From the NCBI GenBank assembly GCA_016699085.1, contig CP064958.1, forward strand, positions 271,630 to 335,629: DNA of 64,000 nucleotides. Reading direction: 5' to 3'. This document shows, piece by piece, positions 4,456-64,000 of the stretch (its first letter is position 1; each line of letters starts with the position of its first letter). A program made the position numbers and the translations under genes. Under the pieces are notes generated by a model, which was not told the origin of the DNA, searched no databases, and worked only from the letters and a program-made list of their open reading frames with translations. This DNA comes from Candidatus Nomurabacteria bacterium. Lineage in GTDB: Bacteria > Patescibacteriota > Minisyncoccia > Phycocordibacterales > UBA9973.

Positions 4456-4637
4456 TTATCCACAGATGTTCTTACGCAAGTGCAGAAAATAGCATATACT
4501 GTATGCAAGTACATTTATATTTCCAACCAGAGCTTGCCGTTTAGGCATCAAATTAGTGGTATGGAAAAAATATCGAAACAGTTCTTTCAGCACAGAATTA
4601 TTTGTGCATAGTATGTTCTTTATCGTAGGATAGGAGA

Positions 4638-4695
4638 AAGAGCCTCATGTTTGCCCCATAGATTTCTATGAGCCAAACACGAGGCTCTTTTTTTA
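4638..4695 (+). terminator. Hairpin with T-tract between convergent genes
   Basis: AAGAGCCTC ... GAGGCTCTT forms a 9-bp stem around a large loop that contains an inner CATAGA/TCTATG palindrome, followed by TTTTTTT. Confidence 0.45.
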
Positions 4696-4697
4696 TG

Positions 4698-5408
4698 TTA
4701 CATATATGCCAGCAGTATCGCCTCAAGTCCTTCATCAATCGATACTGTACCTCGTCTCGCATCATGATACAGTTTTACAATTGCCTGCCGGAATGCGAAC
4801 AGCTCGTCGTTAGTATATTTCGTCATATAAGTACGGGATTTTTTTTCAACATAGGGATTAAGTCCAGAGGGTGCACCTTTTGGCAACTTGGTTAGAAGGC
4901 TTACTGTTTTTAAGAGCCAGAAAAGTGCACCAATAATCTCGTCAGGACTTTTATCATGGAGTATAGCCTCCGTATACATTGCCCATGCTCCTTTTTTATC
5001 GCGCATACCAACACGCTCAGTAAATGCAAATGGCGTCCACACTTGGTTACGCTCTTTTGGTAAGGCATATTCTGCACATAACTTTGCATTTTTTTTAAAT
5101 AATTCTCTCTCAGCTGCAAGTATTGTCTCTTCAGAAATAACACAAACCGCAGGTGAATCTACTATTGTTTCTATGTTTGATAGGATATAGTCTTTGACCT
5201 CGCTTACCATCATCGCTCCATCGAGGATAACTACGTAAGCCTGTCCAAAGAGTGATGTACTCTCAAAATATTGAGTGAGTAATTCAGGCTTTGCCGTCAA
5301 ATCATTAAGTGTAATGGTTTCGTATGCTTTATATAAATCATTGTTCACCAATTCCTTTACAGCATTCTGTCGCTTATCTGTATCAGTGCCGTAGAAAACA
5401 AAAAGCAT
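4698..5408 (-). CDS. Possible DNA polymerase III delta subunit (HolA-like), short form
   Basis: The N-terminus MLFVFYGTD...SLFGQAYVVIL resembles the HolA N-terminal pattern. At 236 aa it is shorter than typical, so this is a weak call. Confidence 0.35.
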   Translation of the reverse strand: MLFVFYGTDTDKRQNAVKELVNNDLYKAYETITLNDLTAKPELLTQYFESTSLFGQAYVVILDGAMMVSEVKDYILSNIETIVDSPAVCVISEETILAAERELFKKNAKLCAEYALPKERNQVWTPFAFTERVGMRDKKGAWAMYTEAILHDKSPDEIIGALFWLLKTVSLLTKLPKGAPSGLNPYVEKKSRTYMTKYTNDELFAFRQAIVKLYHDARRGTVSIDEGLEAILLAYM

Positions 5409-5409
5409 A

Positions 5410-5898
5410 CTAGAATGTAACTATTTTTTTATAATTTACATACGCCTCACCATATCGTTCAACCAAAATTTCTTCTTCGCGTCTGATATAGGTATATCGA
5501 GTGACCACATAGGCAACAATGGCACCCATGACAATAAGTCCAGAATTCATAATGAAGCCAAAACCAAGCACTAAAAACACAAGGCCGATATGTGTGGGAC
5601 TGCGCGTATATTTATACGGGCCATACATAAAATCAGCTGGTGTCATACCTATACCATGCTCTTTTCGATTTTTAGCGGTCATTTCCGATGTATGTTGCGC
5701 CCAATATATAAGCGCCGTACCAACTATCAGGAGTACGGGACCGAAAGCTATAATCGTTCCACCAAAAATCCGAAATGGGTAGAAGTAATCAACAATAAAG
5801 CCAAATATTGCAGCTGCAAAATAGATTAAATATGAATGCGCTAGAACTTGATGAATATTGGTTATATGGCCCAAAAATTGTATATGTTTTTTCTGCAT
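5410..5898 (-). CDS. Isoprenylcysteine carboxyl methyltransferase (ICMT/PEMT) family membrane protein
   Basis: Multi-TM protein. The C-terminal signature GPYKYTRSPTHIG ... RREEEILVERYGEAYVNYKK matches the ICMT/PEMT family pattern (RHPxY ... EE.L...FG..Y..Y). Confidence 0.6.
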   Translation of the reverse strand: MQKKHIQFLGHITNIHQVLAHSYLIYFAAAIFGFIVDYFYPFRIFGGTIIAFGPVLLIVGTALIYWAQHTSEMTAKNRKEHGIGMTPADFMYGPYKYTRSPTHIGLVFLVLGFGFIMNSGLIVMGAIVAYVVTRYTYIRREEEILVERYGEAYVNYKKIVTF

Positions 5899-5931
5899 AG
5901 CGTATGATTTGCAAAGTATACCATACCCCTC

Positions 5932-8319
5932 CTATTTCAATTCTCCCCAATGAGCACCCTCTTTGCTATGAACTTCGATTGGTACTGACTTAAGATTCTC
6001 AAGGAATGATGGCGGGATGATGTCTTGCATAGCTTTACCAATTATCTGCTTTGCCAGTAGTGCAACTGATGTGTCCACTTCATAGACCAATTCATCATGC
6101 ACCTGCAGTACAAGCAGTACCTTATCTACAATTTTGTTTTCTTCAAGCTTTACTTGAACATCCCGAATTGCCAATTTGACGATGTCTGCAGTTGCTGTAC
6201 CTTGGATTGGCGCATTGATCGCCATGCGCTCTGCCATAGCGCGTACAAATGGCATTTTAGATTTCAATCCTGGGAAATAACGTTTACGACCAAAGAGAGT
6301 CTTGGTATAGCCATACTTATACGCATCAGCTTTGACCGTATCTAAATACTCTCGAATTGTAGGAAATTGTGCAAAGTAATTATCATAGAATTCCTGTGCA
6401 GTTTTCCGATCAGTACCGAGATTCTCCCTCAGTGCCGTAACTCCCATACCATAGAGGATACCGAAATTAATAACTTTGGCGCGACGGCGCATTTCATTAT
6501 CTACTTTATCTTCTGGTACACCGAACACTTTCGAAGCAACAGCAGCATGCACATCTTTGCCTTCTTGAAAGACTTTAATCATAAAAGGATCTTGTGATAG
6601 AAGTGCAGCAATACGAAGCTCGATTTGGGAATAATCAAATGCTAAGAGCACACTTCCCTTTTTGGCAACAAAAGCATTCCTGATATTTCTACCAAGTTCT
6701 GTGCGAGTGGGAATATTTTGCAAATTTGGATCTTGGGAGGCAAACCTACCAGTTGTTGTGCCTGCCTGGATAAACTTGGCATGCAATCGTTTGTCGTCAC
6801 TTATAAGTAACGGCAACGTGTCTATATATGTCGAAAGTAATTTCTGTAATTCCCGGTGCAGTAATATGTCAGCAACGATTGGGTGAGCATCACGAAGCTT
6901 CACAAGTTCGCTTTCCCGTGTCGAACGCGCTCCGCCTGCAGTTTTCTTGAGCTTTGTGCCCGTACCCTCGTTGATCGCCAGTTCGTCGAAGAGTATATCT
7001 CCTAGCTGCTTCGGTGAATTGATATTAAACTCTCTGCCTGCATGTTTCCATATTTTAGCTTCGAGACTAGCAAGTTCCTTGTGGTACGTCTTCGAAAGTT
7101 TTTCTAAATAAGCCTTGTCGACTTCGATACCTGTCTCATAGATACCATCAACGATAGGGATAATCGGAAGCTCTATTTGTTCATACACATATGACAAGTC
7201 ATTGGTTTTGATATCTTCTAGGATCTTTGTCCGCGCGCTATCAAATGTAGCAACATGCGCATAGGCGAGCATGTCAGCAAGGGTAATATTGGTTAATTCT
7301 GAATTCAAAAGCCAGAGAGCGATTGCAGTTTCATTAAATAATTTCTGGTCGACTTGCTCTTGGGGTATTTCTGTTTTTTCTTCTGCCACAATTGCAACAT
7401 TAAAAATTGTTCCAACTCGAGCAATAAGACTTCGAAATTCATACTCACGGAAAAGTATTTCGATTTTAGAAACATCAATATTGTCTCGAAACGTTTTCTC
7501 TGGTAGTTGAAATGCTATAGCTGCATCACGCCTAATGGTTGCTAGTGTTTTAGAAAAAAGGGCTTCATCCTCTCCTTCTTCGAGAAGTGTAATGATGCGG
7601 TCAGTGATGCCTGCTTTCTTGAAAGCTGCTTTGTCTTTTTTTAATTTCTTATAAATCTCTTCAATGGTGCCAAATGTTTGAATAAGCGTTGTTGCTGTTT
7701 TCTCGCCAATACCTTTGATGCCAATAATATTATCTGACGGATCACCACGAAGCCCTTTATAGTCAACGAGAAGTTTCGGCTTGAAACCATAGCGTGCCAC
7801 AACCAAATCTTCATTATAGAGAATCGTGTCATTGATGCCTTTCTTCAAGGTAAAGACTTGGACCTTCTCATCATCGACAAGCTGCAATGTATCCATATCA
7901 CCTGAGGCAATAATAATATCTATATCTTTATCTTTTTTCATATTCTCAACAATTGTTCCCAAGACATCATCAGCCTCAAATCCCGGCGCATCATACATAG
8001 GAATATTGAATGCTTCGAATATAGTTCGAGAACTTTTGATCTGAGTGACGAGGTCATCATCGGCTTTCATGCGTCCAGCTTTGTACGCATCGTATACTTC
8101 GTGGCGAAATGTTTTCTGCGGCAAGTCATAGGCGGCAACAATATAGTCAGGCTTGAGATCGGTAATTATCTTCATGAGCATAGTCGATAAACCATAGAGC
8201 GCCCCAGTCGGCTCACCCTTTGAGCTCATAAAATCAGGCAAGGCATGATAGGCTCGGTGAATAATCGCATGAGAATCAAGCAAAATTAGGCGTTTTTTGA
8301 TTATTTTCTTATCTCTCAT
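5932..8319 (-). CDS. polA: DNA polymerase I
   Basis: 795 aa. It has a 5'-3' exonuclease N-terminus (LLDSHAIIHRAYHALP), a pol A motif A DYSQIELR and a motif C QVHDELVYE. Confidence 0.95.
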   Translation of the reverse strand: MRDKKIIKKRLILLDSHAIIHRAYHALPDFMSSKGEPTGALYGLSTMLMKIITDLKPDYIVAAYDLPQKTFRHEVYDAYKAGRMKADDDLVTQIKSSRTIFEAFNIPMYDAPGFEADDVLGTIVENMKKDKDIDIIIASGDMDTLQLVDDEKVQVFTLKKGINDTILYNEDLVVARYGFKPKLLVDYKGLRGDPSDNIIGIKGIGEKTATTLIQTFGTIEEIYKKLKKDKAAFKKAGITDRIITLLEEGEDEALFSKTLATIRRDAAIAFQLPEKTFRDNIDVSKIEILFREYEFRSLIARVGTIFNVAIVAEEKTEIPQEQVDQKLFNETAIALWLLNSELTNITLADMLAYAHVATFDSARTKILEDIKTNDLSYVYEQIELPIIPIVDGIYETGIEVDKAYLEKLSKTYHKELASLEAKIWKHAGREFNINSPKQLGDILFDELAINEGTGTKLKKTAGGARSTRESELVKLRDAHPIVADILLHRELQKLLSTYIDTLPLLISDDKRLHAKFIQAGTTTGRFASQDPNLQNIPTRTELGRNIRNAFVAKKGSVLLAFDYSQIELRIAALLSQDPFMIKVFQEGKDVHAAVASKVFGVPEDKVDNEMRRRAKVINFGILYGMGVTALRENLGTDRKTAQEFYDNYFAQFPTIREYLDTVKADAYKYGYTKTLFGRKRYFPGLKSKMPFVRAMAERMAINAPIQGTATADIVKLAIRDVQVKLEENKIVDKVLLVLQVHDELVYEVDTSVALLAKQIIGKAMQDIIPPSFLENLKSVPIEVHSKEGAHWGELK

Positions 8320-9503: not shown

Positions 9504-9580
9504 AATCAAATATTTTGAGCCGAACATTGTTTGAGCCCCGCTCATGCGGGGCGAGTTTGAGAGGCAAAAAATATTTGATT
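9504..9580. repeat. IR-flanked GC-core hairpin element (divergent member of the intergenic element family)
   Basis: The flanks aatcaaatatttt / aaaaaatatttgatt are inverted repeats. The core is GAACATTGTTTGA-GCCCCGCTCATGCGGGGC-GAGTTTGAG. It shares the TGTTTGA-[hairpin]-GAGTT arms with copies at 15152, 45308, 52433 and 63187. Confidence 0.55.
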
Positions 9581-12003: not shown

Positions 12004-12049
12004 ACTAAAAATGTAGTGCGATTGTTTCATAAAAACGAAACAATCGCAC
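12004..12049 (-). terminator. Intrinsic terminator of the 12075..13043 gene
   Basis: A perfect 14-bp stem AGTGCGATTGTTTC / GAAACAATCGCACT is preceded on the plus strand by an A-tract. Confidence 0.65.
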
Positions 12050-12074
12050 TGTATGCTTATAATTTTGCAAGATA

Positions 12075-15006: not shown

Positions 15007-15113
15007 TTGCTTTGATTATATATTTAAAGAGTACGAATATTTTTGTACTCAAAAATTCCTCGAGTTCACGCCGCCGCACTCGCTAGCCTCTTGAAATATA
15101 TAATCAAAGCAAA
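15007..15113. repeat. IR-flanked element (divergent family member), in tandem with copy 15131..15224
   Basis: Flanks ttgctttgattatatattt / aaatatataatcaaagcaa form a 19-bp perfect IR. The core contains a GAGTAC-N10-GTACTC hairpin followed by CGAGTTCACGCCGCC (compare GAGTTCCGC in the main family). Confidence 0.5.
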
Positions 15114-15130
15114 AAGGGATGGTTTGGGGA

Positions 15131-15224
15131 AAAATAAAACACAATTATTTTTGCAGCGAGGACTGTTTGAATCCAATTGTAATTGGATGAGTTCCGCAAC
15201 AAGAAAATAATTGTGTTTTATTTT
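15131..15224. repeat. Intergenic element family copy A: 21-bp perfect AT-rich IR flanks around a conserved 52-nt core
   Basis: Flanks aaaataaaacacaattatttt / aaaataattgtgttttatttt. Core TGCAGCGAGGACTGTTTGA-ATCCAATTGTAATTGGAT-GAGTTCCGCAACAAG. The core is near-identical (reverse complement) to 45308..45359 and 52433..52484. Confidence 0.85.
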
Positions 15225-15254
15225 TTACTTACATTAATATACAAAAGAAAAAAC

Positions 15255-18934: not shown

Positions 18935-19078
18935 ATGTACGAAGAAGAAGAATTGATTGGTTTGGAATTAGGAGAGGAAGAAGATCCACTAGCAGATGAT
19001 ATCGATTCAGATCTTGAGCCTTTAGCCGACGATGCTGTTGGCGTACCAGAAGAAGAGGAGGAAGAGGCAGGATACTAG
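18935..19078 (+). CDS. Possible 47-aa highly acidic mini-protein
   Basis: MYEEEELIGLELGEEEDPLADDIDSDLEPLADDAVGVPEEEEEEAGY, read directly from the sequence. It is below the ORF-track cutoff and is followed immediately by a strong terminator. Confidence 0.25.
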   Translation: MYEEEELIGLELGEEEDPLADDIDSDLEPLADDAVGVPEEEEEEAGY

Positions 19079-19111
19079 TAAAAACACCCCATGATGGGGT
19101 GTTTTTACTAG
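19075..19111. terminator. Bidirectional intrinsic terminator between ruvC and tyrS
   Basis: CTAGTAAAAACACCCCAT-ga-TGGGGTGTTTTTACTAG is a perfect extended palindrome. Confidence 0.8.
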
Positions 19112-20520
19112 TCTGTGACGAGTTTTATAAAACGGTGTTTGCCGATACGAATCACGAGGCTCTCAACAATTGGCATCTTGGGATCAGTGACGATAGTCTC
19201 CTTTTCGCCATTACCCATCACTATCTTGATTGCATTTTGGGTAACAAGTCTTGCAAACTCTGATTTTGATTCAATGATCCCTTTGTCTAATAGAAAATCA
19301 ACGAGTGGCGTACCCCGTGTAACGATATGTTCTGGTATATGATCAGGCATTTCCTTTTTCTGAAATGTATTTATGAAAAAAGTTTCAGCACCATTCGCCT
19401 TCTGTTCACCATGATAGATAGCCACAATTTCCCGCGCTAGTCTCATTTTAAGATCCTTAGGATTTAAGTTGGTATCAGTAAGTTTTGTTTTTATCTCATC
19501 GATTTCATTAAGGGGTGTAAAAGTAGCTAGTTCAAAATAATTTGCAATTGATGCGTCCGGTATCGACATAACTTTGCCGTACATATCTTCTGGTGTATCA
19601 GTAATCGCAATATAATTATCAAGACTTTTCGACATTTTTTCTTTACCATCAGTGCCGACAAGGAGATCGCAAGCAAGAACTGCCTGCTCTGGTTGACCAT
19701 TAGCTTTCATGACATCACGACCCATAAGCATGTTGAATGTTTGATCAGTGCCACCAATTTCCAAATCGCAGGTGGTATATATTCGCGCAAGTGCAAATGA
19801 GTCAATACCCTGAAGCACTGGGTAGAGCATTTCATGCATATAGAGTTCCCGACCATCATCTATCCTCTTTTGAAACATGTCCCGTTCAATAAGTCGCGCA
19901 TGAGTAACATGTTTGAGTGTCCACAATAATCCCCGGAGTGTAATGGCAACGATGTTATCTGTATTATGAAGATGGGTTATTTGCATTCGCGTCTTTTCAA
20001 ATAAGACGGATTTACCAATAAATGAATTTGGTGCAAATGGCACACTCATTTTTTTGTGCTCACTATCTTCTACATCAAGCGATATAGCAGTATCTTCTGA
20101 TGGAGCAATGTCAGTAATACCAAAAAACCAATCAGAATTTCTGATCCAAGAAAATAATTCTGGATCAATCGTGAGAATATTGCCTACTTGATCCAAGTAC
20201 GTTTGCATGTTTATTTCAACTTCCTTTTGATCCATTTCTGGTCGTATTTTATCTTTTCCGGTCGGATCACCAATTCGCGCAGTAAAATCCCCAATAAGAA
20301 AAATAACTTTACAACCCATGTCTTGGAATTTTCGCAATTTTCTAAGTACAACAGCATGACCCAAATGTATATCAGGGCGTGTAGGATCAACGCCAAATTT
20401 AATGACAACTTTTTCTGGAGTTTCTAAAATTTTCTTTTTAAACGATCCTTCTGGATCAATGAAAGAGCCCACGCCGCGGGAAAGGAGTTCATCTATTTCT
20501 TTTTCAGTTGGCTTTGCCAT
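19108..20520 (-). CDS. tyrS: Tyrosyl-tRNA synthetase
   Basis: Class I HIGH motif (PTRPDIHLGHAV), KMSKS motif (KMSKSLDNYI), and a C-terminal S4-like domain. At 470 aa it is consistent with TyrRS rather than TrpRS. Confidence 0.85.
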   Translation of the reverse strand: MAKPTEKEIDELLSRGVGSFIDPEGSFKKKILETPEKVVIKFGVDPTRPDIHLGHAVVLRKLRKFQDMGCKVIFLIGDFTARIGDPTGKDKIRPEMDQKEVEINMQTYLDQVGNILTIDPELFSWIRNSDWFFGITDIAPSEDTAISLDVEDSEHKKMSVPFAPNSFIGKSVLFEKTRMQITHLHNTDNIVAITLRGLLWTLKHVTHARLIERDMFQKRIDDGRELYMHEMLYPVLQGIDSFALARIYTTCDLEIGGTDQTFNMLMGRDVMKANGQPEQAVLACDLLVGTDGKEKMSKSLDNYIAITDTPEDMYGKVMSIPDASIANYFELATFTPLNEIDEIKTKLTDTNLNPKDLKMRLAREIVAIYHGEQKANGAETFFINTFQKKEMPDHIPEHIVTRGTPLVDFLLDKGIIESKSEFARLVTQNAIKIVMGNGEKETIVTDPKMPIVESLVIRIGKHRFIKLVTD

Positions 20521-24659: not shown

Positions 24660-26009
24660 TTATTTGAACATACCGCGTATCTGTTCAAGTTCTTGGGATA
24701 AATTTGGGTTTCTTTTTAAATCCTCTTTAATTTTTAAAAATGAATGTATAACAGTTGTGTGATCTTTGCCACCAAGTTTCTGTCCTATGAGTGGATATGA
24801 AACATTAAAATCCTCACGGAGAATATACATAATCATTTGCCTCGCGTGCACGATCTCTTTGCGTCGGGTTTTTTCATATATAGAAGATTCATCAATATTA
24901 TAAAATGTGGAAATAATGTGTACTACTTCATCAATAGAAACATTTTTCTTTGGTTTGATATTATTTTTAATAAGACCTTTGACCTCACTCATTGAAATAT
25001 CCTTATTTTTCAACCTTGTTTGACAAATAATAGCATTTAAACTTCCCTCGAGTTCTCGGATACTGCCGCTTATAACTGCTGCTGTATATTCTAAAACCTC
25101 ATCAGAAATTTCAATTTTTTGTTCTTGCAGTTTTGTTCTGAGTATTGCTAACCTTGATTCATAATCAGGCTCAGTAATATCTACTATCATGCCAGCCGAG
25201 AATCTAGATTTTAATCGGTCTTCAAGACCGGGGATATAATTGGGATGTTTATCTGAAGAAAAAATTATTTGACGGTTACTTTCATAGAAAGTATTGAATG
25301 TATGAAATAATTCTTCTTGTGTTTTCTCCATTTTCCCTACAAATTGGATATCATCGATGATTAGCACATCGTATTTTCTATATTTTTCTTTAAAATTATT
25401 TGCTTTATTTGTTTGAAAAGAATTAATTAGGTCTGTTGCAAACTTTTCAAGGGTAATATAATGCACTTTTTTATCTGGATACTTTGTTTTAATAGCATTA
25501 CCCACACCTTGAATCAGATGTGTCTTTCCTAACCCGGTACCACCATAGATGAAAAATGGGTTATAACTAGCACCAGGCTTACTAACAATAGCTTGGGCCG
25601 CTGCAAATGCTAGTTCATTGAATGAGCCAACAATAAAGCTTTCAAATATATAACGTGGGTTTAAATTATCCTCTTTATTGATATATAAGTCTTGTAAAGG
25701 TAATTCTTTGTTGATAAAAGATTTCTGCTCGATACTAACTTCCTCTTTTGGTTTAATATCATAGCGAGTAATAGTATATTCTACAGCTCTTACATTCTCT
25801 GAATATTGCATCAAGGTCTTCAGTATCAGTTTGTGGTATTTATTACAAAGCCAATCTTTAACAAATTCATTTGGTACACCAATACAAGCGGTGCCATTTT
25901 CTTGACGAGTAATTGTCGTATTTTTAAACCATGTACTATAGTTTGCTCGCGAAACTGCTTGCTCTATATCGCCTAAACATTGTTCCCAAAGTTGTTTTGT
26001 ATCTTGCAT
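24660..26009 (-). CDS. dnaA: Chromosomal replication initiator protein DnaA
   Basis: AAA+ Walker A GGTGLGKTHLIQ, Walker B DDIQFV, a C-terminal DnaA-box binding domain, and a position divergent from rpmH. Confidence 0.95.
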   Translation of the reverse strand: MQDTKQLWEQCLGDIEQAVSRANYSTWFKNTTITRQENGTACIGVPNEFVKDWLCNKYHKLILKTLMQYSENVRAVEYTITRYDIKPKEEVSIEQKSFINKELPLQDLYINKEDNLNPRYIFESFIVGSFNELAFAAAQAIVSKPGASYNPFFIYGGTGLGKTHLIQGVGNAIKTKYPDKKVHYITLEKFATDLINSFQTNKANNFKEKYRKYDVLIIDDIQFVGKMEKTQEELFHTFNTFYESNRQIIFSSDKHPNYIPGLEDRLKSRFSAGMIVDITEPDYESRLAILRTKLQEQKIEISDEVLEYTAAVISGSIRELEGSLNAIICQTRLKNKDISMSEVKGLIKNNIKPKKNVSIDEVVHIISTFYNIDESSIYEKTRRKEIVHARQMIMYILREDFNVSYPLIGQKLGGKDHTTVIHSFLKIKEDLKRNPNLSQELEQIRGMFK

Positions 26010-28152: not shown

Positions 28153-28235
28153 ATAATTGCGAATTTACAACTACAAATTACGAATGCATACTGTATTTCA
28201 ATTCGTCATTCGTAATTTTTAATTACAACTAAAAT

Positions 28236-28290
28236 AAGACGATTATTTTCTTCTTGTGGGGCGTAGGTCCTCATCGAGAATAATCGTTTT
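28236..28290. repeat. Small IR-flanked GC-core element (family relative) between convergent genes
   Basis: Flanks aagacgattatt / aataatcgtttt. Core CTTCTTGTGGGGCGTAGGTCCTCATCGAG shares the GTCCTCA and CTTGT(T)G motifs with the main family. Confidence 0.45.
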
Positions 28291-28296
28291 TTTATT

Positions 28297-45284: not shown

Positions 45285-45383
45285 AAGAAAGTTTGGATAA
45301 ATTTTTTCTTGTTGCGGAACTCATCCAATTAAAATTGGATTCAAACAGTCCTCACGGCAAAAAATATTTTTCCAAACTTTCTT
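45285..45383. repeat. Intergenic element family copy B
   Basis: Flanks aagaaagtttggataaatttttt / aaaaatatttttccaaactttctt. Core CTTGTTGCGGAACTCATCCAATTAAAATTGGATTCAAACAGTCCTCACGGCA. Confidence 0.85.
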
Positions 45384-45445
45384 TTGGTTTGTTCATAAAC
45401 AACAAAAGTGCCATGGTATACCATGGCACTTTTGTTGTTTATTTA

Positions 45446-52411: not shown

Positions 52412-52505
52412 AAAAAGAGCGAAAAGATTTTTCTTGTTGAGGAACTCATCCAATTAAAATTGGATTCAAACAGTCCTCATTGCAAAAAATCTTTTCGCTC
52501 TTTTT
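52412..52505. repeat. Intergenic element family copy C (between convergent M23 and comM genes)
   Basis: Flanks aaaaagagcgaaaagattttt / aaaaatcttttcgctcttttt form a perfect 21-bp IR. Core CTTGTTGAGGAACTCATCCAATTAAAATTGGATTCAAACAGTCCTCATTGCA. Confidence 0.85.
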
Positions 52506-56343: not shown

Positions 56344-56492
56344 ATAAAAGTAAACAAAACGCTTACTTTATATATAAAATAAGCTTATTGATAGACATAT
56401 ATCTATATTTATGTCATAATCTGTAAAGATCGGGTTTGATTGGCAAAATGGGGCAATTCTAGAAGCCCCTCTTACTAATTAAATCCAAACAA

Positions 56493-57281
56493 ATGAAAAA
56501 TTCAAAAAAATTACTTATTGTAGCGGGAGCTGCAGGCGAAATCGGAACCGAGTATTGCAAGATGGCCATTGCACACAAAGTTAATTGCATTGGGATTGTT
56601 AGAAATCGAAGAACAGGAATCAAATCACCTTTCTTTACTGAAGTAGTATGTGGCCTCGACAAAGAAGCATCCATACATGAGTCATTTGCAGATGTTGATT
56701 TCAGTGAATATAAAGAAATCATTTATCTGCACACTATTGGCGTAGATAACTTTGATCCCCGTGGTTACCCAAATATAGAGCCCTTAAAAACAATTCCGCT
56801 AGAGATCTATGATTCAAATGTAAATTCATTTAAGTATTTACTTAGGTATTGTGGAATGAAGATCAGTGCGTTAAATGATGGTAGAAGAGACTCTAAGATT
56901 AGCTTGAAAATTGCAATTATTGCAGGAGTTTCAGACAAGTACACTCCCTTTGTAATTGAGCCTTTTTGTGAAGCTAAATTTATCTTGAGACAGTATATTC
57001 AATCATATATACAACTGCATCCGGATTGGATTTCAGGACTCTCGATAAATATTACCTCAACAATTACTGCTTCTGCATTACGAGTACGGCCACATGCAGA
57101 TACCACGTACTGGCTACAGCCATCTGAAGTAGTTCAGAAATCATTTGAAACGCTTATCTCAAACGCCCGTAAGTACAAGGAGATGGATATCATAAAAAAC
57201 TTTCCAGATTTTATTCCTGGATATTATATGTCCAATAAAGATTTGTATGAAAAATGGAGCAGAGAAACAGGTGTTAAGTAA
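56493..57281 (+). CDS. NAD(P)-binding Rossmann-fold protein (SDR/epimerase-like)
   Basis: N-terminal LLIVAGAAGEIGTEY glycine-rich dinucleotide-binding motif. Confidence 0.55.
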   Translation: MKNSKKLLIVAGAAGEIGTEYCKMAIAHKVNCIGIVRNRRTGIKSPFFTEVVCGLDKEASIHESFADVDFSEYKEIIYLHTIGVDNFDPRGYPNIEPLKTIPLEIYDSNVNSFKYLLRYCGMKISALNDGRRDSKISLKIAIIAGVSDKYTPFVIEPFCEAKFILRQYIQSYIQLHPDWISGLSINITSTITASALRVRPHADTTYWLQPSEVVQKSFETLISNARKYKEMDIIKNFPDFIPGYYMSNKDLYEKWSRETGVK

Positions 57282-57393
57282 TAATCTAAGGAATTTCTGT
57301 CGATTAATCTTCAGAAATTCCTTTCATTATTCAGCTCACGATATTTCGTGGGTTGATAGTGAAATTGCCCTTTGTTAACTTAAAAAGTACATT

Positions 57394-58011
57394 ATGAAAA
57401 AGGATGTTTCTGAAATTCTTGCCTTTGTGTTTGCTAAAATTGTAGGTTGTATTTTCTTTGGTTGGCTAACATACCTCGCTGGGATTCTTGTAGTTCTAGC
57501 AGTACTGGATGATAATCAAAACTTGTTTTCAACATTCGGTTATTCCATCTTTTGTTTGGGCTCACTGATCTTTGCCGTATTTTTTCTTGCAATGAGTGAA
57601 GAAGATTTAAGGAAAAAGCGGAAAGATAGGAATACTAACTGGAGAAACTTGGCTCCCAAACTTTGCCGCCAGCGGATCATTATTGAAGCAATCACGGATC
57701 ACTGTGTCACACCAGAAGAGTTCAAAGACTATCTTTTGAAACTCTCTCATGTTGTCGGCATGCGATTACTGGAGCATGGCAAAGATCCTAACCCTTCTGC
57801 CTATGACGCCGAGAATATGGGTTACGGTGGCTGGATTCATTGGGTCACTTCCGGCGCGCATATGTATTCGTATCCTGCCGAGGTCACAGGTGGTGCAGGA
57901 CATTTGCTTAGTGTCGATGCCTATACCTGTAAACCGTTCTCCGTCGAGAAAGCTGTTAAATTCACCCGAGAGTATTTCAAACCGAAAGACATAGTCTGGC
58001 GGGAATTTTAA
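57394..58011 (+). CDS. Membrane-anchored S-adenosylmethionine decarboxylase-like (pyruvoyl AdoMetDC family) protein
   Basis: Two N-terminal TM helices. The C-terminal motifs WVTSGAHMYSYPAE and LSVDAYTCKP resemble the SpeH/SpeD-type ESHIxIHTWPE and DVFTCG motifs. Moderate. Confidence 0.4.
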   Translation: MKKDVSEILAFVFAKIVGCIFFGWLTYLAGILVVLAVLDDNQNLFSTFGYSIFCLGSLIFAVFFLAMSEEDLRKKRKDRNTNWRNLAPKLCRQRIIIEAITDHCVTPEEFKDYLLKLSHVVGMRLLEHGKDPNPSAYDAENMGYGGWIHWVTSGAHMYSYPAEVTGGAGHLLSVDAYTCKPFSVEKAVKFTREYFKPKDIVWREF

Positions 58012-58170
58012 CTCTATCCTAAGTCGTATTTTATGAAAATGAAATACGACTTTTTCTTATAGTCAGTAAACTTAAAGTTTATTAATTTATAATAACAAAC
58101 AATAAATTATATATCTGTCAATATTCCTGCTATGCTTATCACAAAATAAGTTCACTAAAAATCAAACAAG

Positions 58171-58740
58171 ATGAAAGAAAAATATTATGTAATAGCATCC
58201 ACTGCCTTCTTGTTGGTCTTGATTACTGTTTTGGTCTCTTTACCTTCTTGTGGTTTCCATCTGGTGAAATTTGGGTCACAACGCGCTTTCATTATGAAAA
58301 CTGGGAAAATAGTTTCAGTTCGTAGTGTTCCGACAGATAAGGAAATCGGGGATACAATCATTGTGTTCCATACTAGTGACCAATCAGATACAACATATGT
58401 TTGGATAGAAGATGACTTTGCTCCGACACATGAGCAGGAGGGAATAAAAAATCAAAGCGGTGAGTGTAGGTATAGGGCAATAATCGTCTCTCCTGGCACG
58501 AAACAAGTGACCCCAACTAATGCTTTTACTGTTGATACTTATTCGAGCTCGTATAATCCCAATACAAATTCATTCGAAGTTGGATTCGATGTTAAAGAAA
58601 GAAATACAACAGGAAAGGTTCAGGTATTTGTAAAGCAAGGAGAAGATTGCAGAACAACCAACCATAAGATTTTCGACAGTTTATTAGTAGTAACTCAGTA
58701 TGCAGACACCTACAGATTTATTTCATTTAAAGAACGTTAG
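58171..58740 (+). CDS. Secreted/anchored hypothetical protein
   Basis: N-terminal hydrophobic segment VIASTAFLLVLITVLVSL, a beta-rich body, and a terminator hairpin at 58746..58775. Confidence 0.45.
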   Translation: MKEKYYVIASTAFLLVLITVLVSLPSCGFHLVKFGSQRAFIMKTGKIVSVRSVPTDKEIGDTIIVFHTSDQSDTTYVWIEDDFAPTHEQEGIKNQSGECRYRAIIVSPGTKQVTPTNAFTVDTYSSSYNPNTNSFEVGFDVKERNTTGKVQVFVKQGEDCRTTNHKIFDSLLVVTQYADTYRFISFKER

Positions 58741-58745
58741 GGTTC

Positions 58746-58775
58746 CAAAAAACCAGACAGAATGTCTGGTTTTTT
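58746..58775. terminator. Bidirectional intrinsic terminator
   Basis: AAAAAACCAGACA-gaa-TGTCTGGTTTTTT. Confidence 0.75.
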
Positions 58776-59637
58776 ATATTTTGTCCTCCAGATTTTTAGG
58801 AATGACAAAATTTTTCGTAAAGCGTTTTTTGAGTATATGGGCTTTTGATTTGTTGTGATCGACAAGTATCTTGGACTTCCTGTGCTTGGATAATATTGCT
58901 CGTAGTTTCTTGTCAGCTTCTTCGTCATATACTTTTAGCGCTCTAAACAATATGTCGATTTCATTTGCAACTTTCTCATCATAGCGAGTCGTAATGATAT
59001 AGTCTCCCATCACGACAATATTGTCTGTGAGGGGAAAATTGAAACTCTCATCGATTGCAACTTGGACAGTATCGGTCTGATATTTTTTCTTAAAAGAAAT
59101 TGCCATTGGTGTCTGCACACCAAGTGTTGTGAAGAGTTGGTGCCTTTTCTTCTTGATTAAATCAAATAAGTTATTTTCAGCTTCTGGCCTGTCATACATG
59201 AACCACTCATGATGGTTATAGAAAAATATTGGTTCACCTTTTAGTTCTTCGGCCAACAGTAGAAAAAGATGTGCCCAATAAATATCAAGTTCGGTAGTTG
59301 ATGTGAACGTATATGACTGTATGCGTCCTTCTCGTTTGGAAAGCCTCTTAACAATACCGTATGCACTCTCTGCTTGTTCAACAAATTTGGCAATTTTTGC
59401 AATCCAAACAATATTTAACGATACACGCCGTCCATGTTTTATTACCTGTTCTTCTTTAATAAGCTCACGAAGTGCTTTGTAATAAGCTTGTTTCGTTGCG
59501 TCAAATGGTCTTGCAACTAAATCCATTAATTCGAGGCTATCCTTTTCACCAGCAACAAGCTCAAGTACGATTGCGCCTTTCAACCCTATTACGCTTCCCG
59601 GGAAAATATTGTGAGTAAACTTTTTATTTACTATCAT
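58774..59637 (-). CDS. Hypothetical protein, paralog 2 of the ~300-aa family
   Basis: See the paralog 1 alignment blocks. Confidence 0.55.
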   Translation of the reverse strand: MIVNKKFTHNIFPGSVIGLKGAIVLELVAGEKDSLELMDLVARPFDATKQAYYKALRELIKEEQVIKHGRRVSLNIVWIAKIAKFVEQAESAYGIVKRLSKREGRIQSYTFTSTTELDIYWAHLFLLLAEELKGEPIFFYNHHEWFMYDRPEAENNLFDLIKKKRHQLFTTLGVQTPMAISFKKKYQTDTVQVAIDESFNFPLTDNIVVMGDYIITTRYDEKVANEIDILFRALKVYDEEADKKLRAILSKHRKSKILVDHNKSKAHILKKRFTKNFVIPKNLEDKI

Positions 59638-59715
59638 AATATAACTATCGCATTTTTTGAAATGGTGTCAATAGCATTGTATGCTTAGAAAAATTGTTAA
59701 CTTAAATCAAAACCA

Positions 59716-60105
59716 ATGGCACTCTGCGGATTCAACAAGCAAATGATAGATGGCGTCAAGAATTTTTTTGAAGGCGCTGCTGATCAAATCACTATTCGTG
59801 CTCAAGAAGAAAATATGGTTATTCGAGAAGTAATTGAAAATATTGAGCTACCAGAACTTGATTTTATGATTTCTGAACTTTCACGTTCAGGCAAAGATGA
59901 TGTATTCTTGGGTCTTTCCTATCTAGCGAGAGCACAATACAAAGTTGGACTCAAAGGAGTTAAAGAAGGTGGTGATATAAAAATTGTTTGTAATACATTT
60001 GTCGAAAAAGAAATTCCCCGACTTTTGGAACTTGAGGATAAGTATTATAAAGAATTGCGACCAAAATATGGAATGGAAGAAGCAATAAAAAGAATGTTTT
60101 CGTAA
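59716..60105 (+). CDS. Hypothetical protein
   Basis: 129-aa ORF with a plausible RBS-less start, followed by a strong terminator. Confidence 0.45.
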   Translation: MALCGFNKQMIDGVKNFFEGAADQITIRAQEENMVIREVIENIELPELDFMISELSRSGKDDVFLGLSYLARAQYKVGLKGVKEGGDIKIVCNTFVEKEIPRLLELEDKYYKELRPKYGMEEAIKRMFS

Positions 60106-60108
60106 ATT

Positions 60109-60137
60109 CAAAAACCGACTCATCGAGTCGGTTTTTT
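60109..60137. terminator. Bidirectional intrinsic terminator between 59716 gene and pnp
   Basis: AAAAACCGACTC-atcg-AGTCGGTTTTTTT. Confidence 0.8.
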
Positions 60138-60152
60138 TCTTTTCCAAATTTA

Positions 60153-62333: not shown

Positions 62334-62460
62334 TATTTTTTGAGATCAAAAAACTTTAGTATTGTTCCTCCACTTACTATGGAACACTACTACCTGTCTT
62401 TTGACCTCGATTATTGCTAATAATTTTAGCCTAGCAGAAAATGGATGATTCTGGAAGTTT

Positions 62461-62504
62461 TTAATAAAAAGAAATTCCCTAACAAATTTGTTCGGGAATT
62501 TCTT
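62461..62504 (-). terminator. Perfect 12-bp hairpin 3' of the NYN gene and within the pnp 5' leader
   Basis: AAAGAAATTCCC-taacaaatttgttc-GGGAATTTCTTT, with an A-run on the plus side (a U-run on the minus transcript). Confidence 0.5.
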
Positions 62505-62506
62505 TG

Positions 62507-63025
62507 TTATCTTCGTCCTTGGCCGAGCAAATATTTCCTTGGATTTTCTGATAGGTCCATGAAGTCATCTGCGACTTCTTTGAGTTTCATTGATGATGAT
62601 TTACCGAATGAGACGACTTCGACTTGGATACCTGAATGAATCTGCAAGTATTCAACGAGCGGGATAAAGTCTCCGTCACCTGCGACGAGTATGATTGCGT
62701 CAAGCTTTGGTGCCATCGTGATCGCATCAACAGCGAGTCCGACGTCCCAGTCGCCTTTCTTGGCGCCGCCCATAAATATTTGGAGGTCTTTGGTCTTAGT
62801 TTCGATGCCCATTTTCGTCAAGGCTTCAAAAAATGCTTTCTCATCACCAGCTTCAGTGTTGATGACGTAGGCGATCGCTCGCACGAGCTGACGGCCCGCA
62901 ACAGCATCTTTGACGATGGCTCCGAAGTTCACTCTCGCTTTATATAAATTGCGTGCGCTGTGGTAGAGATTTTGTGTATCGATAAATACAGCGACGCGTT
63001 GTTCTTTGTGTTTAATAATTGACAT
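62507..63025 (-). CDS. NYN-domain (LabA-like, PIN-fold) protein
   Basis: VAVFIDTQNLYHSA and ILVAGDGDFIPLVEYL are conserved NYN/LabA motifs. Confidence 0.7.
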   Translation of the reverse strand: MSIIKHKEQRVAVFIDTQNLYHSARNLYKARVNFGAIVKDAVAGRQLVRAIAYVINTEAGDEKAFFEALTKMGIETKTKDLQIFMGGAKKGDWDVGLAVDAITMAPKLDAIILVAGDGDFIPLVEYLQIHSGIQVEVVSFGKSSSMKLKEVADDFMDLSENPRKYLLGQGRR

Positions 63026-63075
63026 ATAGTTCTTAGTATAAAAAATTGTTTACTTAATTAGTATTAAAATGTTTC

Positions 63076-63159
63076 GCTTGCAGTATATATTTTTCTCATT
63101 GCGGGGCGCAGTCTGTTAGGTCGCGCTTGTCCTCATTTCGAAAAATATATACTGCAAGC
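63076..63159. repeat. IR-flanked GC-core element (divergent), tandem with copy D
   Basis: Flanks GCTTGCAGTATATATTTTTC / GAAAAATATATACTGCAAGC form a perfect 20-bp IR. Core TCATTGCGGGGCGCAGTCTGTTAGGTCGCGCTTGTCCTCATTTC. Confidence 0.55.
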
Positions 63160-63165
63160 TCGTTG

Positions 63166-63257
63166 CTTGTCTGTAAGAGAATTTTTGTAACGAGGACTGT
63201 TTGAACCTTGTTACCACAAGGTGAGTTCCGCAGTAAAAAAATTTTCTTACAGACAAG
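63166..63257. repeat. Intergenic element family copy D, with a compensatory variant of the internal hairpin
   Basis: Flanks cttgtctgtaagagaattttt / aaaaattttcttacagacaag. Core GTAACGAGGACTGTTTGA-ACCTTGTTACCACAAGGT-GAGTTCCGCAGT. It has the same arms as copies A, B and C, but the hairpin sequence is fully replaced while pairing is preserved. Confidence 0.8.
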
Positions 63258-63316
63258 TAGATTATTCTTCGATTTAGTATAACATCTGCCCGGACGATTG
63301 TTCAGTCGGACGAGGG

Positions 63317-63346
63317 AAAACCGCCCCGCACATGCGGGGCGGTTTT
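63317..63346. terminator. Intrinsic (bidirectional) terminator of rpsO
   Basis: AAAACCGCCCCGC-acat-GCGGGGCGGTTTT, immediately 3' of the rpsO stop. Confidence 0.8.
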
Positions 63347-63352
63347 CAAGCA

Positions 63353-63613
63353 TTACTCTTTGATTTTTTTGAGGGCTTTGGCGTAGCGAGTCTTGTCTTT
63401 CTTCTCGAGATATTTGAGGTGAGTTCGGCGATCAGAAACCATTTTGATAAGTCCACGCCTAGAATGGTTGTCTTTCTTGTGTTTCTTGAGGTGGGTCGCA
63501 AGTTCGCCGATTGAGGCTGAAAGCATGGCAATCTGGACTTCAGGAGAGCCGCTATCTGTAGCATGCGCCTGGTTTTCCTTGATGATTTTCTGTTTTTTCT
63601 TTGTCGTTAACAT
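63353..63613 (-). CDS. rpsO: 30S ribosomal protein S15
   Basis: [51 protein letters not shown] matches the S15 consensus (HKKDHHSRRGLLRMV). Confidence 0.9.
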
Positions 63614-63670
63614 GGGGAAATAGTAGCATATTTAAAGGAAAAATGCAAGCCCCCATGCTATACTGACCAT

Positions 63671-64000
63671 ATGAGTGCCTCTATTGATACCTTAAAGCGT
63701 CAATTCCTCGAATATATGGAAATCGAGCGCGGTTCCAGCTTGAAAACCGTTGCCAACTACTCGCACTACCTCACTAAATTTTTTGCCTTTGCCAAAATCA
63801 CCGACGTGAATGCCATAACAGATGATACGGTACGAGAATTTCGTCTGCACCTCAATCGCCAGTCTGGGTCGCGAACTCGCGGCCAGCGGAGCGGTACGAT
63901 GAAGAAAAATACGCAGAACTATTACTTGATTGCCGTTAGGAGATTTCTCAAATACTTGATGAAGCGAGGCATTACGTCGCTTTCTCCTGAGCGGATCGAG
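63671..64000 (+). CDS. Tyrosine recombinase XerC/XerD-like (N-terminal part; runs off window)
   Basis: LKRQFLEYMEIERGSSLKTVANYSHYLTKF is the N-terminal SAM-like core-binding domain of XerC/XerD integrases. No catalytic domain lies inside the window. Confidence 0.7.
   Translation, partial: MSASIDTLKRQFLEYMEIERGSSLKTVANYSHYLTKFFAFAKITDVNAITDDTVREFRLHLNRQSGSRTRGQRSGTMKKNTQNYYLIAVRRFLKYLMKRGITSLSPERIE

Follow-up and report, generated by a model that had tools for sequence, protein, structure and literature searches.

The closest described systems to the element family reported here are dispersed hairpin repeats and small structured RNAs. REP, BIME and REPIN sequences are hairpins scattered through intergenic DNA at gene 3′ ends, which occur in both orientations and often as inverted pairs; one strand makes an imperfect hairpin, and the copy number varies between close relatives. 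A REP is species-specific and conserves its stem together with a GTAG head at its 5′ end. MITEs, such as Correia, ERIC, RUP and the IS231-derived cassettes, are non-autonomous, hairpin-folding and multicopy. The small self-cleaving ribozymes (hammerhead, twister, hatchet and pistol) have an invariant unpaired core with covarying helices, and are phylogenetically widespread, multicopy and without a fixed gene context. Finally, template switching in quasi-palindromes, which is a way for mutations to arise rather than a functional class, leaves multi-base compensation, stem extension and inversion between arms (Monttinen and Loytynoja 2022, PMC8794818).

The window, by which we mean the whole stretch of 64,000 nucleotides that was analysed, is a segment of a bacterial chromosome with ~39% GC and genes including pilB, ruvB, uvrD, a comM-like gene and rpsO-NYN-pnp; the product of the comM-like gene has an identical counterpart in a Candidatus Nomurabacteria genome. 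It contains four strong copies (A–D) and one divergent copy (E) of a single family, which are listed here with the hairpin that adjoins copy D.

9504..9580 (core 9514–9570), plus strand: divergent copy E, in which P2 is shortened (AAC/GUU); 23.6 bits, E = 2.5e-5
15130..15225 (core 15150–15206), plus strand: copy A, with a perfect 22-bp outer stem; 60.7 bits
45285..45383 (core 45305–45361), minus strand: copy B; 60.2 bits
52412..52505 (core 52430–52486), minus strand: copy C, between the convergent comM-like and M23 peptidase genes; 54.7 bits
63076..63159, minus strand: partner hairpin adjoining D, with 20-bp arms and a core that has only the ends UGAGGAC...CCGCAAUGAG in common with D
63166..63257, plus strand: copy D, the whole hairpin element (inverted repeat I2), made up of outer stem P1, core and apical P3
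63184..63240, plus strand: core of copy D, with P1a, the GA/GCA loop, P2 GGAC/GUUCC, the UGUUUGA/GA loop and P3 at 63205–63222; 60.8 bits, E = 1.7e-17 with model R1

In copy D, the outer arms at 63166–63186 (CTTGTCTGTAAGAGAATTTTT) and 63237–63257 (AAAAATTTTCTTACAGACAAG) enclose, on the left, GAGGAC (63192–63197) followed by TGTTTGA (63198–63204) and, on the right, GAGTTCC (63223–63229) followed by GCA (63230–63232). Between these lies the apical hairpin, in which ACCTTGT (63205–63211) and ACAAGGT (63216–63222) flank a TACC loop (63212–63215). The folding energy of D is −41.1 kcal/mol (z = −7.2), with none of 200 shuffles equally stable, and each of the window elements folds much better than its own shuffles (z from −5.5 to −8.5). 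The initial annotation of this DNA had described D as keeping GAGGACTGTTTGA and GAGTTCCGC while its apical hairpin differs yet pairs, and this is indeed what is read there; in copies A, B and C, the same flanks enclose ATCCAATT-(GTA/TTT)-AATTGGAT. The swapped hairpin that had been noted at 9517–9565, GCCCCGC-TCAT-GCGGGGC, is likewise present as the apical hairpin of copy E. The wording that every stem position changes went too far, in that alignment from the base of the hairpin shows four of the seven pairs to differ between D and A–C and three to be the same. In the window, TGTTTGA-N10-40-GAGTT matches six times against 0.61 expected, a number that 0 of 100 shuffles reach; one of the six, at 25017, is a chance match.

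A further feature, absent from the description in the initial annotation, is the divergence of the outer stems with retained complementarity. In the window these stems are 13–24 bp long and (near-)perfectly complementary, and their sequence is unrelated from copy to copy. Copies A, B and C have nearly identical cores, including P3, on unrelated arms, which could reflect either a core module of ~66 nt that inserts into hairpins already present or cores that are homogenised by gene conversion. The possibility that the outer arms are generally pre-existing terminator stems was rejected: it is plausible for C, but the rpsO terminator next to D is a distinct structure, and the arms of a Falkowbacteria-type subfamily belong to the conserved element.

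Other long hairpins are found in the window. The partner of D, which scores just 9.1 bits with R1 (E = 1.5) and forms a minus-then-plus pair with D, represents a second type that also occurs at 28233–28293; its minus-strand core retains just UGAGGAC ... CCCGCA(A/G) of the core of the family. A third type, at 15007–15112 directly upstream of copy A, has 25-bp arms (96% complementary) around an unrelated 56-nt core. In addition, long perfect or near-perfect palindromes with loops of 0–8 nt lie at gene 3′ ends (4637–4690, 12006–12059, 19074–19112, 45395–45442, 57280–57331, 60098–60148 and 62468–62505), and such palindromes are also seen in sister Nomurabacteria (L261). Those in the window and in the sister genomes are probably bidirectional terminators, and their perfection suggests active palindrome homogenisation.

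The gene order around D is rpsO-NYN-pnp (window 62400–63700). Both D and its partner lie past the rpsO terminator (63316–63347), and a promoter-like site on the minus strand (63304–63276) is located upstream of the two, placing them in the NYN-pnp leader. This position is reminiscent of the RNase III hairpin of the E. coli pnp leader.

The element is laid out as a long variable outer stem, a short P1a, a GA/GCA loop, P2 (GGAC/GUUCC), a UGUUUGA/GA loop and the variable hairpin P3. The consensus reads P1(variable)-P1a-GA-GGAC-UGU(U/C)UGA-P3(variable, often GC...GC)-GA-G(U)UCC-GCA-P1a'-P1'. The conserved module at the hairpin tip comprises ~57 nt, and P2 consists of 4 bp with a bulged U; the arms are locus-specific in this genome and exceed 75 nt in other lineages. 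TGTTTGA is a conserved unpaired segment, as had been proposed. The companion proposal that GAGTT is single-stranded applies to its GA, but not to its G and UU(CC), which build helix P2 with GGAC. The base directly before GAGGAC pairs with the fourth base past GAGTTCC, and GCA is left unpaired. The first pair of P1a is C-G in 103 elements, U-G in 11 and U-A in 6, and the second is G-C (80), G-U (12), C-G (11), A-U (7) or U-A (5). The third occurs as all four Watson-Crick types and is paired in 82% overall.

All three helices, P1a, P2 and P3, covary. In an alignment of 79 sequences from many phyla, 84.8% of the cells of this structure are paired as compared with 68.0% in shuffles, none of which (0/500) reaches the observed value; pairing rather than sequence is therefore kept in the apical hairpin, as the window copies had led the initial annotation to propose. 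The covariation score of the same alignment is 0.423, versus 0.148 for shuffles and ≤0.09 with the partners slid. P2 is invariant by construction in this alignment, and hence a separate test used a metagenome scan in which position 12 had to be other than G and any base was allowed opposite it. All 90 cases with C at position 12 have G as the partner (90 of 90); a single U-A and a single A.G were also recovered. The C-G class, with compensatory variants of the form GAGCAC...GAGUUGC, spans 65 distinct P3 sequences. Since P3 and the outer stem need only to pair, D may carry ACCTTGT/ACAAGGT where A–C have ATCCAATT/AATTGGAT. These covarying, free-sequence helices frame ~15 invariant unpaired nucleotides, and the folded core of ~30 nt is invariant across phyla.

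Two unusual sets of members deserve mention. One (L020, 6117–6237) has a ~60-nt insertion inside the UGUUUGA loop (GAGGACTG, the insert, then TGTTTGA). In the other, a Nitrospirales chromosome (L048, 2760–6304), four variant copies lie within 3.5 kb, with Watson-Crick pairs in place of the GA/GCA loop (GGCGAGGG...CCCUCGCC) and the UGUUUGA/GA loop retained.

The mismatches in the arms distinguish the two strands. In the long arms of 87 non-redundant elements, with the bases adjoining the core excluded, the GAGGAC strand has 71 G.U versus 37 A.C mismatches (p = 0.0014) and 65 G.A versus 19 U.C (p = 5e-7), counts that are not phylogenetically independent; the asymmetry has the same direction in all three GC classes (low, medium and high). 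Such an asymmetry is not what a symmetric cruciform would give, and it argues that one strand folds alone. The suggestion of RNA or cruciform DNA in the initial annotation is thereby narrowed to one folded strand, and a symmetric cruciform is disfavoured. The active strand is presumably that with GAGGAC, which would fold single-stranded, most likely as RNA. In Betaproteobacteria, a terminator-like hairpin and a U-run follow the forward element (L059). In several phyla a second conserved hairpin, GGUUACUUUCUUUUGG-loop-CAAAAGAAAGUAACC, with a U-run before it, occurs 60–115 nt 3′ of the core. It is common to Beta- and Gammaproteobacteria, Saccharibacteria and Gastranaerophilales (L016, L020, L022, L034, L053–L055, L062, L064, L086, L094, L101, L104 and L119), and a search of the window for GGUUACUUUCUUUUGG...CAAAAGAAAGUAACC found none. 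The downstream terminator-like site and the second hairpin favour RNA.

On balance, we lean toward reading the family as a strand-specific folded module, probably RNA, that offers a putative recognition surface to a conserved partner and rides on REP/MITE-like hairpins. The invariant loops and P2 would form this surface, which would resemble a K-turn in its tandem G.A pairs next to a C-G closed helix, and the partner would be a highly conserved factor acting in trans.

The distribution of the family was examined with the pattern GAGGACTGTTTGA-N14-30-GAGTTCC, taking one genome per species. The exact core is present at at least 120 loci in about 12 bacterial phyla. The carriers include Gamma- and Betaproteobacteria, many CPR lineages, Coriobacteriia and other Actinomycetota, Lachnospiraceae, Bacteroidaceae and Spirochaetota, as well as Gastranaerophilales, Myxococcota, Nitrospirota, Omnitrophota, Desulfobulbaceae and Chloroflexota. 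The bases that follow the pattern, which are outside the query, are GCAG with 91–98% conservation (G 118, C 121, A 122 and G 114 of 125). The flanks match the base composition of the host, indicating that the matches are genuinely resident in those genomes; the hosts range from AT-rich CPR bacteria to 70% GC, with the same core and host-adapted arms. A single viral contig matches in IMG/VR, plasmids give chance matches only and E. coli gives none, and a phage or plasmid origin was rejected on these grounds.

The genes around the elements fall into housekeeping families only, as Pfam searches of 86 upstream and 92 downstream ORFs show; no gene family is linked to them, and the ORFs between clustered copies are ordinary genes. 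On these results a riboswitch or cis-regulator was rejected, as was an association with transposase, RT or Cas genes. The elements are located at gene 3′ ends and in leaders, in either orientation, with 5 in divergent-promoter regions versus 60 downstream of a gene end. Between co-directional genes, 14 elements are sense and 25 antisense. This lack of a sense bias is awkward for a cis-acting mRNA element, which would need its own transcription or a single-stranded DNA form. No promoter or terminator with a constant spacing to the base of the hairpin is shared by every lineage. Near an Omnitrophota copy, two tandem c-di-GMP-I riboswitch aptamers were observed (L046, 1118–1363).

Comparison of close relatives shows that the elements come and go. 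In 53 kb of syntenic DNA from three sister Nomurabacteria there are 0 model matches, versus five in the 64-kb window; plain perfect hairpins of 17–23 bp occur there after rpsO, NYN, pnp and comM, and the position of copy C is taken by a plain terminator hairpin (L261, hairpin I6). Flanking direct repeats of 10–12 bp are found at 3 of 111 elements (L025, L028 and L079), far beyond the null, from which the remaining elements do not differ. Whole hairpins of 140 to >300 nt are repeated with shared arms within genomes of Myxococcota, Lachnospiraceae and Bacteroidaceae. Minus-then-plus pairs are present at at least 13 loci, with the second, non-identical copy 150–300 nt away.

The D locus provides the clearest view of this turnover, as four states are seen among contigs that encode identical S15 and NYN proteins: the arrangement of the window, both cores inverted in place, the family core lost with a short hairpin left behind, and neither element. 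In the inverted state (the L122 lineage) the order of the hairpins is kept and R1 matches on opposite strands. One core is identical to its counterpart at 46 of 51 positions when flipped versus 33 of 51 unflipped, and the other at 33 versus 27 of 44. The arms of the flipped locus differ at 4 of 12 positions, all of them compensated. Template switching (PMC8794818) accounts for compensation, stem extension, perfect arms and the inversion at this locus, and it leaves the conservation of the core unexplained. The inversion and the compensated arm changes are footprints of template switching, so that compensation is partly mutational and not a product of selection alone. The claim in the initial annotation that compensation points to selection on structure thus needs qualification: pairing is kept, but with these signatures at D it is not clean evidence. 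Compensation reflects selection for pairing plus DNA template switching. Mutation cannot account for loops and a P2 that are nearly invariant in phyla of differing GC. Flipping and arm changes may arise by template switching or by inter-arm recombination, either of which would also keep the arms perfectly complementary and yield multi-base 'compensatory' changes. The elements as a whole turn over in a REP/MITE-like manner and, in the account favoured here, would do so by insertion, loss, flipping and template switching.

Two neighbouring observations concern the same region. The S15-NYN interval of one contig (L127, the same as L269) is without the family core and has an extra ~110-nt insertion just upstream of the NYN start. 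We considered it as an empty site and rejected this, as an A.C mismatch and T(G/A)AGAAA direct repeats would better fit a deletion derivative. Another strain (L273) is otherwise identical to the window at loci B, C and D, yet a cassette of other genes (methyltransferase plus small ORFs) takes the place of those between pnp and a 293-aa gene (4892–8018, versus window 56400–60150).

The turnover just described brings forward selfish DNA that moves via a single-stranded intermediate, in the manner of REP/RAYT or IS200/IS605, the core being a putative transposase site and the RNA having no role. Strand-specific folding, both orientations relative to genes, inverted pairs like the arrangements of BIME and REPIN, presence or absence between close relatives, the 10–12 bp flanking duplications of three copies and the copy families within genomes would all be accommodated. 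We nevertheless regard this explanation as possible rather than probable: among ~180 neighbouring ORFs and 20 scanned window ORFs there is no transposase, integrase or Y1/HUH gene, and known REP/MITE recognition sequences are species-variable where the present core is the same from AT-rich CPR bacteria to 70% GC. Furthermore, a MITE conserves its ends and here it is the centre that is conserved, and IS200/IS605 and REP systems produce no target duplications.

A more far-reaching proposal, which we think unlikely, is a structured RNA class not described before, no less widespread than hammerhead or twister motifs, that has an activity of its own, be it self-cleavage, ligation or the specific capture of a universal cellular factor, and that has colonised intergenic and terminator hairpin tips in at least 12 phyla, with flipping in place deciding whether the active strand is transcribed. 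The narrower idea of a new small self-cleaving ribozyme or other active RNA carried on hairpin repeats, as with hammerhead and twister, appears quite doubtful. It draws on the ~15 invariant unpaired nucleotides amid covarying free-sequence helices, on an identical core in ~12 phyla that is multicopy within genomes and tied to no gene, and on the superficial likeness of CUGUUUGA-stem-GA to the hammerhead with its CUGANGA-stem II-GAAA. Yet searches with the Rfam ribozyme models give no match even at E ≤ 10, the fold is without a three-way junction or pseudoknot and has two internal loops just 4 bp apart, the orientation relative to transcription is unconstrained, and the Nitrospirales variants replace the GA/GCA loop with Watson-Crick pairs.

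Finally, ordinary intrinsic terminators or mRNA-stabilising hairpins, whose compensation would be a template-switch by-product with no specific partner, are very improbable: the position at gene 3′ ends, the A-tract/T-tract flanks of copies A and C, the plain 17–23 bp perfect hairpins at the same places in sister genomes, and perfect arms and loop inversion explicable by template switching (PMC8794818) speak for them, but they leave unexplained both the strand asymmetry and a ~30-nt core identical across phyla of differing GC, and D, which is without a U-tract, belongs to the NYN-pnp leader, past the distinct terminator of rpsO.

The folded module with a recognition surface, which we favour, would be of interest on several counts. 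An Rfam-absent, invariant core of ~30 nt that spans CPR, Proteobacteria, Actinobacteria, Firmicutes, Bacteroidetes, Spirochaetes, Nitrospirae and others is rare, and cores so conserved have mostly proved to be ribozymes, riboswitches or binding sites of universal machinery. With its short length and defined helices, the module is directly testable. In CPR genomes of <1 Mb, dozens of copies would mean a notable investment or parasite load. The D locus is also a natural example of how DNA template switching can give long hairpins 'compensatory' changes and inverted loops, which matters wherever covariation serves as proof of RNA function.

How, then, does the family compare with known ones? Within the window, Rfam 15 identifies only a tRNA; the D region at E ≤ 10 gives only chance matches to miRNA-precursor-like long hairpins, and none falls on the element in 16 loci from many phyla, or at E ≤ 5 in L088. 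A known RNA family was therefore rejected, at gathering as well as E-value thresholds. The searchable literature, queried with exact core strings and key words, returned nothing relevant; its coverage is incomplete, and an earlier description is possible. The elements of the Minerva preprint are other elements, and the defining positions of the bulge-helix-bulge intron, SRP domain IV, the tRNA T-arm, parS, the CRISPR repeat and group II domain V do not fit. Intrinsic terminators have a GC-rich stem and a U-tract. At D the stem is AT-rich without a U-tract, and a terminator scan reports none there; A and C have T-runs, yet on AT-rich stems.

Among active RNAs, the hammerhead has CUGANGA...GAAA around stem II in a three-way junction, where the present family has CUGUUUGA...GAGU and no third helix; compared with the small ribozymes in general, its architecture of two internal loops is simple and finds no Rfam ribozyme model. 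In the K-turn, as here, a C-G closed helix is followed by a bulge in the 5′ strand and by tandem G.A/A.G pairs, after which a second helix begins (here P3). At the level of sequence, GA lies opposite GA beside the C14-G45 pair that closes P2 in all 79 aligned members, which would be the signature of tandem sheared G.A pairs and may give the module its resemblance to a K-turn. Tandem GA also recurs inside many P3 stems, as GCGAGC/GCGAGC. The bulge of a K-turn has 3 nt and that of the module 5 nt (UGUUU; UGUCU in variants), and many of the carrier phyla have no known L7Ae-type proteins.

The hairpins that carry the module resemble mobile repeats. As in MITEs, there are inverted arms and many copies, 10–12 bp direct repeats at three of 111 elements and, in some genomes, families of copies that share arms. 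In reverse of MITEs, the centre is conserved and the ends are variable, most copies are without duplications, and the window copies share no arms; no autonomous parent element was found. As compared with REP/RAYT, there is no GTAG head and no Y1_Tnp among the ~180 neighbouring or the scanned window ORFs. The conserved stem and species-specific head of REP are replaced here by freely varying stems and a conserved two-loop apical module in ~12 phyla. Dispersed intergenic hairpin repeats are therefore a known kind of element; the combination of free stems with an apical two-loop core shared among ~12 phyla, without an Rfam entry or a match in the searchable literature, appears to be new.
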